Virus genome (UHGV): UHGV-0258057
Source of the DNA: a virus
DNA length: 14,263 nt
Reading direction: 5' to 3' (one strand)
Shown: piece after piece, positions 1 through 10,189 of the stretch
Position numbering within the stretch: position 1 is the stretch's first letter
How the letters are laid out: each line of letters starts with the position of its first letter
Program-made: the position numbers and the translations under genes
Notes under the pieces: generated by a model
Databases searched by the model: none
What the model was told of the DNA's origin: nothing
What the model saw: only the letters and a program-made list of their open reading frames with translations

Positions 1-113
1 TTCTTAGAAACCGATCACATACAGCTGCATTTATTAAGGTTATCATCCGTTTCGCTGAAAAACATAACCCATAAAATGCTAGCTGTACCAGGAACCACCT
101 CCTTAGCCTGTGT

Positions 114-140
114 AATCTCCCTTACACGGGCTTATTTTTT
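114..140. other. Putative P2-type attachment site core (prophage/host junction, attR side)
   Basis: The plus strand reads aatctcccttacacgggcttatttttt, the reverse complement of the 27-nt P2 att core as I recall it (AAAAAATAAGCCCGTGTAAGGGAGATT). It lies immediately distal to ogr, where P2 att sits. Confidence 0.5.
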
Positions 141-5653: not shown

Positions 5654-6844
5654 TTAATTGCTGTTAACCGAGGTGACCAGATTTGCCAGATATTTATCGG
5701 TAATACGCTGGCGCAGGGTCAGGTTTTCAAGAGGAGGCACCGGGGTATAGTCGTAGTCGATATACAGTTTTCCGGCCTTAAGGGTTTCCGCATCGTTGGA
5801 TTCTTCGCTGAACCAGCAGGTCGCATCCACGATATAGCCGTTTGTTTTCAGCTCACGGAATTTGGCATTGATGCCGTCAACGATGTCGCGAATCAGCGTT
5901 GCGGTGATGGGCTTGTCCACCGCCCACATGTGCGCCTCAGCCATCGTGTCGGCCAGCACCTGCGCGGTGCGGGTGTAGTTTTCAAAGAGGAACAGCGGAT
6001 CATCAGAGCAGGTACGGTTACCCCAGAAGCGGAAACCGTCGCGGCGAATCAGCGTTGTGACGCCTGACTCGTTAAGCAGGTCAGCATCGGTGCCGGACTC
6101 CTGCAAATCCCAGAATACAGATGCGCTGATGCCGGTAACACCGTTCACCCCGACATTGGACAGCGTTTTATGCCAGCCCTGCTCTTGGTCGATTTTAGCG
6201 CGCAGACCCAGCGCACGGGCGGTGGCATACGCGGTGGCGGTGGTGCTGCTGACCGTATCCCATGCGAGGAAATCCGGCCAGATGACCATCAGCTCACGCT
6301 GGCTGAAATTCTGGCGGTAGGCTTTCACCTCGGAAATGGTTTTGCAGCCCCATGCGCTGATATACCCGAAAGCGCGCAGCTTCTGACAGACTGATGCCAG
6401 TGCAACAGCAACCTCTTTGGTGTCCAGTCCCGGCACGCCGAGAATACGCGGTTTAACACCGGTTACCGACTCCGCCGCCAGCAGGGCTTTCAGTCCGGTG
6501 TACTGACCGTTTTCGTCGGTGGTGCCGATGATATTGGAAACGGTCTGCGCGAGTTTCGTTTCCTCGTCTTCGCCGGTGCCGTCTTCCACACGCACGACAA
6601 CGGTGACCGGTTTTGACTGGTCGGCGATAGCCTGCAACGATGCCGCCAGCGTGCCTTTTTTACCGGCCTTTGCAATCGCGCTCTGCACATTGGTAATCAG
6701 CACCGGTTTATTGAGGGGGAAGATTTCCGCATCCGCATCGCTGGCCGTGCAGACCATGCCGACAATGGCCGTGGATACAGTGGAAATGACACGGGTGCCG
6801 TCGTTAATCTCCAGCACCTGCACGCCGTGATGATAGTCACTCAT
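5654..6844 (-). CDS. FI: Contractile tail sheath protein FI, 396 aa
   Basis: A 396-aa ORF, first gene of the FI-FII-E-T-U-D operon; size and position match P2 gpFI. Confidence 0.9.
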   Translation of the reverse strand: MSDYHHGVQVLEINDGTRVISTVSTAIVGMVCTASDADAEIFPLNKPVLITNVQSAIAKAGKKGTLAASLQAIADQSKPVTVVVRVEDGTGEDEETKLAQTVSNIIGTTDENGQYTGLKALLAAESVTGVKPRILGVPGLDTKEVAVALASVCQKLRAFGYISAWGCKTISEVKAYRQNFSQRELMVIWPDFLAWDTVSSTTATAYATARALGLRAKIDQEQGWHKTLSNVGVNGVTGISASVFWDLQESGTDADLLNESGVTTLIRRDGFRFWGNRTCSDDPLFLFENYTRTAQVLADTMAEAHMWAVDKPITATLIRDIVDGINAKFRELKTNGYIVDATCWFSEESNDAETLKAGKLYIDYDYTPVPPLENLTLRQRITDKYLANLVTSVNSN

Positions 6845-6907
6845 CCGTTTAACTCCGTGGTTAATGGGTGCAACTATTTTCTGTTGGGCAGTGCATGAGA
6901 CGCTATT

Positions 6908-6922
6908 TGACCTGACTGGTCA
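6908..6922 (-). promoter_or_regulatory. Candidate dyad element of the Ogr-dependent late promoter upstream of FI
   Basis: The 15-nt palindrome TGACCtgactGGTCA is centred about 71 nt upstream of the FI start codon, in the position where P2 late promoters carry a dyad-symmetry activator site. I could not find an exact TGT-N12-ACA match. Confidence 0.25.
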
Positions 6923-6938
6923 GTGGATGAAACAACAG

Positions 6939-6971
6939 ATAAAGAAAAGGCGGGCAATCAGATTGCCTGCC
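6939..6971 (-). terminator. Rho-independent terminator closing the cargo operon upstream of the FI promoter
   Basis: A 10-bp stem ggcgggcaat/attgcctgcc (one G-U wobble) with a 3-nt loop at 6949-6971, followed on the minus strand by UUUUCUUUAUCU (plus 6939-6948). It lies about 150 nt downstream of the SIR2-like gene stop. Confidence 0.6.
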
Positions 6972-7123
6972 TTGATTTGTGCTCACTCATTTTCCGACTG
7001 ACAGTTTACATAGCCAAAACGCTATCAAATCTGACAGCCTGCTTTGAGCGAGGAACGGACTAAATGCTCATCTCAGCGGTCAAAGGATATTTTTCTTTGA
7101 CCGTTCTCTTTATAGAGAAAAGA

Positions 7124-8032
7124 TTATCTGTTAGTTTTATTCTGAATATCTTTGATTACATCGAGGTAATACTCTTTTTCCTTCCCTTTGAACACTAACC
7201 CGAAATTATGATTAATTATAACCCCAACACTTTTCAAAAGATCGATTTTTGGTTTGGAAGCAGCGTCATTATAATAATAACCAGGGATGTAATATGTCAC
7301 CTCATATTGCAAGCTTATTTTCTTTGCAATTCTAGTCCTTTCTCTAAATGTAAGTAACCACCAAAGATCAATTTCAACAAAATCCAAATTCAAGCCTAAG
7401 ATATATACATCCTTAGTAAAAAAATCATCGATCCAGCTATTACCAATATCATTTGCTTGCAACCGCTTTGTAAGCGGCTCGTTGAACGATTTATTGGAAT
7501 ACTGACTTCCGGTAGTTGTATACCCCCGCATGCTTTGCAAATAACCACTGTAATGCTCATAGCCAAGAATTATTGAGCTTGGGTTATTCACTGCTCCATG
7601 TATATGCCATATGTTTTTGTTTTTCACCTGATAATGCCTGAAAATATTGTATTTACTTTCTTTTATTACACCTTCATTTTTTAAATCATCAGGCTTGATG
7701 CTGTCGTCTAAACAATATTCAAAAGCTAAATCATAGTTTGTTGTTAAAATATTATTGCATTCTAATCCAATTATTCTTTGATGGATTTCATTTGGCTTTA
7801 TTGTGTTTATCTTTGATGCGATGGAATCTTTTATTTTATTTTCTGAAAATCCATTCGCTTGCTTATTTGAAATATTAAAATAAATCTCTTCATAGGCTAG
7901 TGGAAATGGTTTTTCATGCGTGTCAATTTTTATCCCATATGTTGCCCCTAGGTTATTTAAAACATCAAGCCAAGAATTTCCATTTGTAATATTATTTATG
8001 CCATTTCCAATAAGCAGTGAATAATCGCGCAT
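7124..8032 (-). CDS. Stand-alone SIR2-like (SIR2_2-type, predicted NAD+-hydrolase) protein, 302 aa; candidate defence effector
   Basis: Motifs in sirtuin-fold order: N-terminal glycine-rich LLIGNGINN, then ILTTNYDLAFE (TTNYD signature with the putative catalytic Asn), then WHIHGAVNNPSSIILGYEHY (HG motif with the following strand), then YILGLNLDFVEIDL. Strong RBS AGGGA 5 nt upstream; about 30% GC against about 55% in the flanking phage genes. Confidence 0.6.
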   Translation of the reverse strand: MRDYSLLIGNGINNITNGNSWLDVLNNLGATYGIKIDTHEKPFPLAYEEIYFNISNKQANGFSENKIKDSIASKINTIKPNEIHQRIIGLECNNILTTNYDLAFEYCLDDSIKPDDLKNEGVIKESKYNIFRHYQVKNKNIWHIHGAVNNPSSIILGYEHYSGYLQSMRGYTTTGSQYSNKSFNEPLTKRLQANDIGNSWIDDFFTKDVYILGLNLDFVEIDLWWLLTFRERTRIAKKISLQYEVTYYIPGYYYNDAASKPKIDLLKSVGVIINHNFGLVFKGKEKEYYLDVIKDIQNKTNR

Positions 8033-8262
8033 TTCTATCCCTTATGTTAGATACATTTTTTACACTATACTACTGATATTTATTCTAATACCAGTCATTG
8101 GCATGTTCGACACCGATAAGTTTGATCTTGCCTAGCAACTTATGTTTTCGAATATGCCCCCCCCATGAAAGTCTTAGACAACTATACCTATTAATATCCT
8201 ACAGAGTGCTCTTCGTAGTCAGAAAATGAGAACGAGATAACATCAGTTCATTGGTTTACTCC

Positions 8263-8499
8263 CTACGCAGTTTGTGAGTTAGCACCGTCCGCTTCTGGCA
8301 CGTAGGGGACCAACCAGCTGGTCCTCAGGTCCGATATGAGCGAGAAGCTAAAATTCGCAGTTGTTCCCAAAGTCGATGGAGGAATTTTTAACATTACAGT
8401 GTATTTATCAACGGGAAGCAGGTCACTCTCTATGGTTCTCGCATTATTTGTTAACAAAATAACATATTCTTTTGCTTCATCGATAGTATTGAATATCAT
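8263..8499 (-). CDS. Small hypothetical protein, 78 aa, middle gene of the cargo operon
   Basis: ORF with RBS GTGGGA 5 nt upstream of the ATG. The first ~58 codons are AT-rich like the neighbouring genes; the last ~20 codons read through a GC-rich hairpin element, so the true C-terminus is uncertain. Confidence 0.4.
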   Translation of the reverse strand: MIFNTIDEAKEYVILLTNNARTIESDLLPVDKYTVMLKIPPSTLGTTANFSFSLISDLRTSWLVPYVPEADGANSQTA

Positions 8500-8587
8500 A
8501 AGTTCCCACTTAACATCGATATCTGCGGTAACTGATTAACACAAAGAAATTCATCCAATAGCAGAGAATAACTTTGAGTTTTAGATT

Positions 8588-9430
8588 TTAAAAAACCTTC
8601 AGCCATAATGTTTCGAGCCTTGTGCCAATCACGCCTTTTCCAATGTTATCCAGCCCTCGAACCATTGCGTATAAGCCACCTAATATTTGAATCCCTTCCT
8701 TTACACCTAAAGACGAATAGTCAAAAGTTGGAAAGAGGACGTAATAAGACATAATTACCCCAATACAACACTCGAAAACTCCATAGGAAAGACGGAAATT
8801 TTCTCTGTACCAAAATAGTATGAGTCCTAAAACGGGTAAACCCATCATTGTCCCCCAAACTGTAATGGTAGATACCAGTACTTCCATATTGGAATAGACG
8901 ATGTTTGCGACTAGAGAAGCAAGCCCGCCGAGCACAAAACTGGCTTTTAGGTAACGCTTTTGAGATGAAACAGCTTTTTCTGCTTTCTCTTCTATTTCTT
9001 TATTTAGAAAATCGCCTTTGCTTTCATTTATAAACTCAATGCCAGTCATAGATGTAATATTCCGACTAGCAAGAAAATAAGACAAGGCACGATCATTGGT
9101 CACGACGCAAGGAACTTCTTCTCCTTGCCGTTCTGCGTAAGAAATAGCTATTCGAGCAATATCAAAGTCTGCCCCAGTCAAACGCTGAGCATTTCTATCG
9201 GATTGGAAGATGTCGTTTTTTATTTTTTCAGGCGCTTCAACTATGAGCACACCAGCGGGAATTGACGAGGCCACTAAATCAGTAATATCTGACCATTTGT
9301 TGCTTTTCCCTCTATATGAAAGCTCATGCATCACAGCTCTTGGGATAACTAGCTTCCGATTTCCAGCTCTAGACAATATCTCCGGATGCTGCAATAAAAC
9401 ATTAGTATCTATTATGTATCTACTTGGCAT
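8588..9430 (-). CDS. PIN-domain nuclease fused to a C-terminal ~3-TM membrane domain, 280 aa; candidate defence component
   Basis: The N-terminus YIIDTNVLL...KLVIPRAVMHELS...TNDRAL follows the PIN pattern (first-strand Asp, then Glu, then the C-terminal TND motif), resembling the YlaK/PhoH-like PIN. The C-terminal ~110 aa has three hydrophobic stretches (FVLGGLASLVANIVY..VLVSTITVWGTMMGLPVLGLILFWY; GVFECCIGVIMSYYVLFPTF; IQILGGLYAMVRGL). RBS AGGGA upstream. Confidence 0.55.
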   Translation of the reverse strand: MPSRYIIDTNVLLQHPEILSRAGNRKLVIPRAVMHELSYRGKSNKWSDITDLVASSIPAGVLIVEAPEKIKNDIFQSDRNAQRLTGADFDIARIAISYAERQGEEVPCVVTNDRALSYFLASRNITSMTGIEFINESKGDFLNKEIEEKAEKAVSSQKRYLKASFVLGGLASLVANIVYSNMEVLVSTITVWGTMMGLPVLGLILFWYRENFRLSYGVFECCIGVIMSYYVLFPTFDYSSLGVKEGIQILGGLYAMVRGLDNIGKGVIGTRLETLWLKVF

Positions 9431-9587
9431 AAGCTATCCCTGATACCTTAATTTATCAAATAAAACGGTATGTAAACATATAAAACATAACTTCACAACT
9501 CACTTATCACTGCAAGTTTCCCAACCAGGCAAGCCATGTGCTTAGATATCTGACCTAACGTTTCTAAATTGATGAATGTCCGCTATT

Positions 9588-9628
9588 GGCACAGAGCGGA
9601 CTGTCAGATTAGGCTTTACTCTGTGCCA
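9588..9628. repeat. 10-bp perfect inverted repeat with 21-nt loop, between the G stop and the cargo operon start
   Basis: tggcacagag (9588-9597) pairs with ctctgtgcca (9619-9628). There is no U-run on either side, so it is not a canonical intrinsic terminator; it may be a protein-binding site or the boundary of the cargo insertion. Confidence 0.4.
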
Positions 9629-9661
9629 TAGATATGTAAGCTCCCACCAGAGCTCATACAC

Positions 9662-10189
9662 TTATTGCGGCATTTCCGGCCATTCAGGATTTGCAGTATC
9701 CACACGACTGACAAGAACGCTGTAGCGTTCCCATGCCTCCAGTCGACTGCGCTCCTCATCTGTTGCCATATTCAGCCTGACAGCGCGCTCCAGCGGCAAA
9801 ATCACGGATTCGGCTTCGGAAAGCAAAGTTGCCTTTTGTGATTCTGCCAGTTGCTGCTGTTCGTCTGCCGTATAAATCCGCTTAATCACTGCACCATCCT
9901 TAAACATCCATTTACCTGAGTCATCAGCACGCCGGTTGGCAGTAATATCAGGAACCTCAACGACGCTAAAACCTTCAGGATTAAGCGTTGAAGCATCTCT
10001 GGTGATGGCGACAATAATATTATTTTCATCATAAACAATCTTTATTGTCTCTGGCTGAAAATTACTTACTTCCTCATACCAGTTTTTTCCGTCTTCGGAC
10101 CATAACCAGATAACATCAAAATTCTTTGTTAGCTGATATTGCTCTTTTGTTTTTGGATTACCTGACTTAATGTTCTTTAAATGCTGCAT
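9662..10189 (-). CDS. G: Tail fibre assembly protein G (Tfa chaperone), 175 aa
   Basis: A 175-aa ORF immediately downstream of tail fibre gene H; size and position match P2 gpG. Confidence 0.8.

Follow-up and report, generated by a model that had tools for sequence, protein, structure and literature searches.

A short GC-rich stretch separates two genes in an AT-rich island of a P2-like prophage, and the question is whether it is an RNA element that belongs with these genes or a trace of how they came to lie side by side. We analyzed the locus in a window of 14,263 nucleotides, which is the whole stretch of DNA presented, from the virus genome UHGV-0258057. Gene content, GC and Rfam matches identified the window as a P2-like prophage with cyaR adjoining, and its tail tube, sheath, tail-fibre, tail-fibre assembly and baseplate genes are all on the minus strand. 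The island (about 6900–9660; GC 0.37 over 6900–9660) lies between the sheath gene FI (5654–6844) and the tail-fibre assembly gene G (9662–10,189), a position that corresponds to the Z/fun variable hotspot of P2 in the NC_001895 annotation; Z/fun is a described variable locus of P2 (PMC9122126). It is laid out as an H2 remnant, a SIR2-like gene, an H1-spacer-H2 unit, a PIN gene and a terminal H1, where H1 and H2 are two kinds of 24-bp site described below. An identical island was found in one of 5426 complete Escherichia coli genomes, that of strain ZH177, in which PGAP calls the SIR2-like and PIN genes only. A retron msr/msd upstream of the 302-aa gene was considered and rejected, this gene being SIR2-like with no reverse transcriptase. 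The reading that we favour, with a probability of roughly 0.7, is that the GC-rich element is the junction of two independently acquired single-gene cassettes, made of recombination sites and lying in a P2-like Z/fun hotspot.

An earlier note on this DNA had described 8261–8324 as a tandem hairpin element, and its base-level description was accurate. By direct reading, ccctacg (8261–8267) pairs with cgtaggg (8301–8307), ggacca (8307–8312) pairs with tggtcc (8319–8324), and the palindrome cagctg is present at 8315–8320. The GC content of 8261–8324 is 0.61 against 0.37 for the island, the stretch overlaps the small ORF on the minus strand, and, in line with the view that it is not a terminator, no run of T follows either stem and a terminator scan of 6800–9700 was empty at 8261–8352. 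What failed was the claim that the stems stand out. The segment 8255–8335 folds like shuffled sequence; its plus strand reaches −23.9 kcal/mol where shuffles average −22.1 (z = −0.56), and the z-score of its minus strand is +0.62. Neither stem is kept in related copies: across 47 homologous junction units, the positions of the first stem pair in 34% of cells (36% with shuffled partners) and those of the second in 53% (54%). Rfam 15 at E ≤ 10 returned only spurious eukaryotic miRNA and snoRNA matches for the region and no match for the intact junction copies in two other loci (L018 and L009). ARAGORN found no tRNA or tmRNA gene in the window, on which ground an origin from a tRNA or att fragment was rejected.

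The suggestion that the element artificially lengthens the small ORF was borne out. The last 28 codons of this ORF are the repeat unit itself, PGAP makes no call at the identical locus, and in the homologous DNA of three other loci (L006, L077 and L082) the frame is interrupted by an in-frame stop. That stop sits at a recurrent ATCAAC...GGTCA motif, of which the window copy carries a point change. The ORF is thus probably an artefact. A coding explanation for the conservation of the region, through MSE.. peptides on the plus strand or the small ORF on the minus strand, was rejected because the reading frames are not preserved.

The conserved feature was found by homology. A sensitive BLAST search with 8100–8345 found matching DNA, intergenic and unannotated, in 68 genomes of E. 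coli; when the query was widened, many Klebsiella, Pantoea and Enterobacter plasmids were matched as well. Alignment of the matches gave the core GGTCCGCTATGAGCGAGGAGCGGAAGTT, which occurs in exact form 20 times in IMG/VR and 46 times in one-genome-per-species contigs, where by a rough hand estimate well below one match would be expected by chance. All of these were from Enterobacterales except for one tiny low-coverage Paenarthrobacter contig.

The unit around this core consists of two 24-bp sites with inverted arms GTCCGCT / AGCGGAC of 7–9 bp and with different asymmetric centres, TGGCAC in H1 (GTCCGCT-nnTGGCACnn-AGCGGAC) and GAGCGA in H2 (GTCCGCT-ATGAGCGAGG-AGCGGAC). The full consensus H1, GTCCGCTTC/TGGCAC/GAAGCGGAC, has perfect 9-bp inverted arms and an asymmetric 6-bp centre, which agrees with the anatomy of tyrosine-recombinase core sites, namely inverted arms around an asymmetric crossover region of 6–8 bp. 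The reverse complement of H1 equals H2 at 7 of 10 central positions, so that each site is an inverted repeat of the other. The profiles of both sites were built from few copies, and the invariance of their centres is circular because the search patterns fixed those positions. Shuffled windows give about two matches at E ≤ 1, and weak sites (E > 0.1) were accepted only with homology support.

All four sites in the window are on the plus strand and follow the order found in arrays generally (Table 1). The H2 at 7037 would be weak alone; every other sampled P2-like hotspot except R18C (L103) has a homologous H2 in the corresponding position. The H1 at 8287 retains the TGGCAC centre and all but one of the 14 arm positions. 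The H2 at 8329 retains the GAGCGA centre, 6 of 7 positions of the 5′ arm and 4 of 7 of the 3′ arm, and matches the core motif GGTCCGNTATGAGCGAGRAGC. The coordinates of the earlier note cover H1 and the spacer only, the conserved feature lying slightly to the right. The third recurrent motif, ATCAACGGGAAGCAGGTC, has 16 occurrences in the 1.57 Mb of collected loci, of which 8 lie 30–62 bp after an H2 centre. A sigma-54 promoter, suggested by TGGCAC, was rejected, the −12 TTGC element being absent at the required spacing by direct reading. Resemblance to the ERIC/IRU consensus extends to only about 12 nt (TGAGCGAGG.AGC).

Table 1. Features of the window; H1 and H2 sites are as assigned from sequence
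Feature	Position	Strand	Sequence	Basis and remarks
CyaR	52–137			Rfam; only match in the window reaching gathering
H2, degenerate 5′ arm	7037–7060	+	GCCTGCT-TTGAGCGAGG-AACGGAC	nhmmer E = 0.22; FI-side hotspot border, left end of SIR2 cassette
Cargo 1, SIR2-like protein, 302 aa	7124–8032	-		Pfam SIR2_2 2.8e-10; PADLOC ThsA-type SIR2 1e-10
Stretch of the earlier note, two chance stems	8261–8324	.		Direct reading, folds, junction alignment
78-codon ORF, probably spurious	8263–8499	-		No family match; not called by PGAP in the identical ZH177 locus
H1, one arm mismatch	8287–8310	+	GTCCGCT-TCTGGCACGT-AGGGGAC	nhmmer E = 3.6e-5; right end of SIR2 cassette and breakpoint between both cassettes
Spacer, 18 bp	8311–8328	+	caaccagctggtcctcag	Holds the second stem of the earlier note
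H2, decayed	8329–8352	+	GTCCGAT-ATGAGCGAGA-AGCTAAA	nhmmer E = 8e-9; left end of PIN cassette
Third recurrent motif	8407–8424	+	ATCAACGGGAAGCAGGTC	About 60 bp right of H2
Cargo 2, PIN domain and hydrophobic C-terminal half, 280 aa	8588–9430	-		Pfam PIN_4 3.3e-11
H1, intact	9578–9601	+	GTCCGCT-ATTGGCACAG-AGCGGAC	nhmmer E = 1.6e-6; G-side hotspot border

In the 47 junction units, the arms of H1 pair in 81% of cells (79% with shuffled partners) and those of H2 in 89% (87%), and G-T and A-C mismatches are symmetric (20 versus 22 and 10 versus 11). Since arm pairing equals the shuffled control and the mismatches show no strand preference, there is no sign of selection for an RNA or single-strand fold, and the conserved signal appears to be the inverted arms in double-stranded form, that is, DNA rather than RNA.

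The full H1-spacer-H2 unit was present in 813 of the 5426 complete E. coli genomes, at a median of 1 place per genome (range 1–3), and was never annotated; this copy number rules out a REP-like high-copy repeat. Across 90 non-redundant loci, which were ascertained through the motif itself, we collected 217 sites, and the sites were all co-oriented in 60 of the 61 multi-site loci. Pairs in which H1 is followed by H2 (n = 47) had a median gap of 15 bp, with 39 below 60 bp, whereas pairs in which H2 is followed by H1 (n = 57) had a median gap of 1231 bp and none below 60 bp. Arrays therefore read H2-cargo-H1-spacer-H2-cargo-H1. The spacers of the 47 units are 9–18 bp long, 18 bp in 20 of them, and by eye many of the 18-bp spacers resemble AGGCTGACTGAGCTGAAG. 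Cargo faces either way in the arrays. In phages it is mostly defence-like, and on the chromosomes and plasmids of Pantoea, Klebsiella and Erwinia it consists of small accessory units, among them pairs of a LysR gene and an oxidoreductase gene, a histidine phosphatase and metal-resistance genes.

The two cassettes of the island also occur apart. A copy of the PIN gene with 98% identity, and without the SIR2 gene, was found adjoining a pin-type invertase in an e14-like prophage (L097), where nucleotide homology to the window is restricted to 8287–9597 and the neighbours are different. The SIR2 gene was found without the PIN gene at 92% identity in a lambdoid tail-fibre region (L099), again with different neighbours, where homology is restricted to 7040–8293. 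The boundaries fall on the sites: at the internal H1, homology to L099 ends at 8293 and homology to L097 starts at 8287; at the outer ends, homology to L099 begins at the FI-side H2 and homology to L097 stops after the TGGCACA of the G-side H1. Because both exchange partners share the 24-bp consensus, such breakpoints can be resolved to the site and no finer. Outside this island, a histidine-phosphatase cassette common to Pantoea dispersa, Pantoea eucrina, Klebsiella grimontii and an Enterobacterales MAG has homology running from H2 to H1, and two further loci (L013 and L014) have cargo in common on different backbones, with similarity starting at H2. Inversion of cargo between H2 and H1 was rejected, as the histidine-phosphatase cassette has one orientation in all four species. 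No target-site duplications were seen at array ends in our reading of the alignments.

These boundaries also account for the hairpins. The first stem straddles the breakpoint: L099 shares its left half, which belongs to the SIR2 cassette, L097 shares its right half, which belongs to the PIN cassette, and each of these loci is without the complementary half. The hairpins are a by-product of inverted arms and of chance complementarity across the breakpoint, and for annotation of the window they carry no independent meaning. The SIR2 and PIN genes, each found alone elsewhere, appear from these comparisons to be separate acquisitions rather than an operon with an RNA partner. Of the interpretations offered by the earlier note, those of a recombination site or insertion scar, of ORF lengthening and of a non-terminator were thus supported, the first by the homology breakpoints and by the half-site pattern given below; a structured or regulatory RNA found no support in Rfam, folding energy, covariation or mismatch asymmetry, and an RNA partner of the system lacked both an RNA signal and a system, given that the flanking genes are not tied to each other.

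We sampled ten P2-like Z/fun hotspots (reference P2, a second P2 isolate, Wphi, 12474II, R18C, P22H1, P2-EC30, P2-EC48, P2-EC58 and the window), and both borders were detectable in 8 of them; a profile search detected only the H1 border in R18C and only the H2 border in P22H1 (L104). In reference P2, fun(Z) is bracketed by H1 at 15335–15358 and H2 at 17428–17447. The outer half-sites, where detectable, are near-constant, reading ATCTGACAGTCTGCTTTGAGCGA (...TTGAGCGA) next to FI and TGGCACAGAGCGGACTGTCAGATT next to G; the latter is present in 9 of the 10 hotspots, with one or two substitutions or a 1-bp deletion in four copies. The inner half-sites vary with the cargo. In this pattern, the outer half-sites stay with the backbone and the inner halves travel with the cargo. 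The borders coincide with features already on record: the FI-side H2 of the window coincides with the ‘right inverted repeat’ of the AJ5126xx GenBank records and the G-side H1 is the start of their annotated ‘left inverted repeat’, H1 and H2 being the inner ends of these repeats. Among known loci, the H sites also delimit fun(Z) of P2 and, in lambda, probably ea59-ea31. A profile search found no H sites in the P2 old/tin hotspot or in phage P4, which fits the report of a survey that P2 and P4 do not exchange genes (PMC13586616).

Three of the genome loci selected through the motif and the E. coli Nissle locus encode a 200-aa protein that consists of the PF00589 catalytic domain only and has weak Xer-like and invertase-like NCBIfam matches below cutoff (‘tyrosine-type DNA invertase’, E = 8e-6). 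Through this recombinase gene we retrieved five more loci of E. coli, together with six distinct loci belonging to Proteus, Providencia, Idiomarina and marine metagenomes. In 15 of 15 distinct loci from 11 genera, the gene fills the interval from an H1 to the H2 slot, the latter about 45 nt ahead of its start codon, and about 25 nt past its stop codon there is a half-H1, GTCCGCTnnTGGCACAG, with a GGCTGCTGTTGCAGCCC hairpin after it. In the nine Enterobacteriaceae-type loci, the H2 slot contains a recognizable half-H2 (...GTTGTCCCTTATGAGCGA); this side was not recognizably conserved in the recombinase loci of Proteus, Providencia, Idiomarina and the marine metagenomes. Across the nine, TGGCACAG and ATGAGCGA mark the two ends of the conserved part, and the outer arms vary between loci. 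With these half-site flanks, the recombinase gene fills the slot held elsewhere by the 9–18-bp spacer, and we infer that H1 and H2 are the core sites of this tyrosine recombinase of about 200 aa. The gene occurs in 863 of the 5426 E. coli genomes (16%); CFT073 is a further example, besides Nissle, of a strain that has it. Database clusters of its family number at least 7998 (E ≤ 1e-10), and the best 120 of them have 76–96% identity to the query and reach the Alteromonadales, and the matches listed were named only ‘integrase’ or ‘tyrosine-type recombinase’. No recombinase of the family is encoded in the 14-kb window.

On the strength of sequence, homology boundaries and orientation order, we assign 8287–8310 and 8329–8352 as H1 and H2 cassette-border sites. 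In the mechanism that we propose, the recombinase would act in trans and exchange strands within the 6-bp centres. H2 × H2 and H1 × H1 events, between molecules or along an array, would insert, excise, delete or swap cassettes, and the placing of heterospecific inverted sites around the cargo would disfavour excision or inversion by H1 × H2; the process would be the natural counterpart to cassette exchange with a pair of heterospecific sites. Such exchange fits the half-site pattern. Given that the internal H2 is decayed and H1 has one arm mismatch, the junction in the window is probably in part a fossil scar, and it may be inactive, the H2 having lost much of both arms. More broadly, H1, H2 and the recombinase of about 200 aa could form an unrecognized integron-like or RMCE-like exchange system for defence and other accessory genes, ranging over P2-like, lambdoid, P22-like and e14-like prophages, islands and plasmids in Enterobacterales and other Gammaproteobacteria; we advance this wider proposal tentatively, at slightly less than even odds.

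A serious rival is short-homology recombination, in which the 24-bp sites would be ‘linker’ homology patches shuffled by RecA, Red or RecT-like functions and the recombinase a passenger. It would give a similar breakpoint picture, as breakpoints coincide with shared sequence just as homology-driven exchange predicts. Many arrays have no recombinase within 5–8 kb, and PeSL-mediated shuffling is documented in T4-type phages (PMC2839356). We nevertheless consider it unlikely. A passenger would not be expected in the same slot and orientation, with module borders at both site centres, in 15 of 15 loci from 11 genera, and the sites have the anatomy of tyrosine-recombinase core sites, with 9-bp arms and a 6-bp centre in consensus H1. 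Moreover, 24 bp is at the lower limit for efficient homologous exchange.

Somewhat less probable still is that H1-spacer-H2 is a miniature non-autonomous derivative of a mobile element, H1-recombinase-H2, the ‘cassettes’ being merely the DNA between insertions. The replacement of the spacer by the recombinase gene, the inverted relation of H1 and H2, which agree at 7 of 10 positions of centre and loop, and the likeness by eye of many 18-bp spacers speak for this, but 1–3 copies per E. coli genome is unlike MITEs or REPINs, array ends showed no target duplications, the unit that genomes have in common is H2-cargo-H1 rather than H1-spacer-H2, and a lone H2 and a lone H1 bound the P2, lambdoid and P22-like hotspots. 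Action of the unit at the RNA or protein-binding level, as a REP-like stabilizer or insulator, an operator for a cargo regulator or a structured RNA, is very improbable. The arms can form 7-bp hairpins on either strand and might cap cargo transcripts either way, the centres are highly conserved (at positions that the search regex fixed), and the stretch is GC-rich within AT-rich DNA; against this stand the lack of an Rfam match, of folding excess, of covariation beyond arm conservation and of a terminator tail, and the homology limits at the sites and the half-site pattern would be left unexplained.

How anti-phage genes move among unrelated mobile elements is an open question. A survey of thousands of P2/P4 hotspots (September 2026) did not decide between transposons, homologous recombination and illegitimate recombination, and it mentioned no flanking repeats (PMC13586616). 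A defined pair of 24-bp sites and a candidate enzyme make the exchange question experimentally addressable, and the H sites, being recognizable by sequence, can serve to set the limits of cassettes and thereby to find new single-gene defence systems. The exchange system, if true, would explain why the P2 Z hotspot trades with unrelated elements and not with P4, which has no sites. A search of the accessible literature by keyword and motif text found no description of the wider H1/H2 system.

The nearest precedent is the P2 Z region itself, whose GenBank records stem from a 2004 study by Nilsson and colleagues that argues in its title for site-specific recombination. The Z-region records annotate the outer repeats, with whose inner ends our sites coincide, and not the internal H1-spacer-H2 composite. 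To these records our analysis adds the anatomy of the 24-bp core, the presence of the sites outside P2 and the recombinase linked to them, parts of which the 2004 study may already describe.

Among systems with short bordering motifs, the pdif modules of Acinetobacter plasmids are resistance modules flanked by XerC/XerD sites. Like H cassettes, they are discrete, have short inversely oriented sites and occur on many backbones (general mention in PMC9771954), but the H sites appear by inspection to be unrelated to dif, their junctions consist of two sites and a spacer, and the candidate enzyme is a dedicated small recombinase rather than the host XerCD. PeSLs are short conserved stem-loops that flank non-essential genes in the hyperplastic regions of T4-type phages, where modular shuffling and mini-circles have been described (Arbiol et al. 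2010, PMC2839356). They resemble H1 and H2 as short conserved motifs bordering shuffled phage genes; however, a PeSL is a promoter and terminator unit acting through homologous recombination, while H1 and H2 have no such features and are tied to a tyrosine recombinase. REP, BIME and REPIN doublets likewise place two inverted short palindromes around a short linker, but they are present in tens to hundreds of copies in core intergenic DNA, whereas the H unit is confined to accessory DNA, has no GTAG-type head and showed no RAYT association at the collected loci. The candidate recombinase shares the size class of about 200 aa and the catalytic-domain-only architecture with FimB/FimE-type enzymes; these invert one promoter segment between 9-bp repeats, while a given H cargo keeps one orientation to its sites and moves between replicons.

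A further analogy is with integrons, which also have co-oriented cassette arrays, short imperfect palindromes, a tyrosine recombinase and anti-phage cargo. Identity with integron attC, as with XerCD/dif, was rejected, there being by inspection no sequence resemblance to the consensus: the attC core boxes GTTRRRY / RYYYAAC are absent from H1 and H2, whose arms are GTCCGCT / AGCGGAC. An integron junction is a single folded attC of 60–140 bp, whereas an H junction comprises two heterospecific 24-bp sites, whose mismatches, unlike those of attC, have no strand asymmetry. The cargo of H arrays, unlike that of integrons, lies in either orientation and often includes several genes. The 200-aa, catalytic-domain-only recombinase differs from IntI, no IntI-like gene was noticed when the flanking ORFs were clustered by similarity, and the H system has no counterpart of the attI-Pc platform. 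In sum, we regard the H1-spacer-H2 junction as a newly found case of cassette-border recombination sites and the system beyond it as a probable novel form of site-specific cassette platform.

Sites of the H1 and H2 type, the 24-bp inverted repeats that probably act as recombination sites at cassette borders, were also found in phage lambda (L028, corresponding to NC_001416 19000-29000). An H2 site was detected together with a weak H1-like site, and the 3' flank of the latter agrees with the H1 flank of the e14-like prophage carrying a PIN cassette (L097). Judged from these sequences, the two sites would bracket ea59-ea31 as one b-region cassette, the content of which is an AAA ATPase and an HNH endonuclease.

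The 200-aa tyrosine recombinase, the candidate enzyme for these sites, belongs to a family of at least 7998 database clusters at E<=1e-10. The best 120 of these clusters matched the E. coli recombinase query with 76-96% identity and span Sodalis, Proteus, Providencia, Idiomarina and Pseudoalteromonas; by this sequence comparison the family is very conserved. The catalytic domain is the sole domain of the protein, for which no specific name was found in any source.

Coordinates of the detected features
Feature	Location	Strand	Remark
CyaR sRNA	window 52-137		100.7 bits
Third recurrent motif, (GTGT.T)AATCAACGG.GAGCAGGTCA	window 8407-8424		
PIN_4 domain	residues 5-121 of the protein from window 8588-9430	-	
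200-aa tyrosine recombinase genes	L075 7125-7727; L079-L083 8001-8603; L084-L095 8001-8603/8612		
H sites around fun(Z)	reference P2 (L105, NC_001895) 15335-15358 and 17428-17447		
H2	lambda 27318-27344 (L028 8319-8345)	-	between ea59 and attP
H1-like site, weak, GTCCGCTCCGGCACATAGCAGTCCTAG	lambda 24330-24349 (L028 5331-5350)	-	between ea31 and ea47; E = 0.81

Of the 16 copies of a third recurrent motif in the collected loci, 8 lie 30-62 bp to the right of an H2 centre; the motif was also present without a nearby H2. A point change in the window copy turns TAA (+ strand) into TAT and opens up the small, spurious reading frame. The H2 centre itself contains an ATG, for example at window 8336-8338 and in L004, L005 and L006. 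Short + strand ORFs from this ATG begin with MSE(E/K) and extend over 67 codons in the window, as against 10-23 in the other copies. The H1 centre GGCACAGAG recurs inverted 22 nt downstream as CTCTGTGCC in the P2 backbone (window 9591-9631), where the pair forms a 9-bp stem within the annotated 'left inverted repeat'; this stem is kept in all of the P2-like phages sampled.

Among the cargo genes, the PIN protein has a C-terminal half that by eye is strongly hydrophobic, which suggests several membrane helices as read from the sequence. PADLOC returned no match for this protein, which may be a candidate for a single-gene defence system not described so far. Window 8157-8164, which lies upstream of the SIR2 gene at a distance of about 125 nt from its start codon, consists of eight consecutive C (G8 when read on the - strand) and may be slippage-prone; no C run of six or more was found at the corresponding place in the 92%-identical SIR2 cassette of a lambdoid tail-fibre region (L099).

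An identical island was found in only one complete E. coli genome, ZH177 (L001, NZ_CM125652.1 1837345-1843912), in a degraded prophage. This prophage lacks the genes for sheath and tube that the window carries, and its SIR2 gene adjoins truncated pseudogenes for 'phage tail protein' and late-control D. CyaR, located at the window's left end, adjoins the ogr/D end of the prophage there; we take the CyaR vicinity to be a known P2-type integration neighbourhood.

H sites also surround fun(Z) in reference P2, and none were found in the old/tin hotspot of the same genome (NC_001895) or anywhere in P4 (L106). Their absence from P4 and from old/tin parallels the published finding that defence genes are not exchanged between P2 and P4 (PMC13586616).
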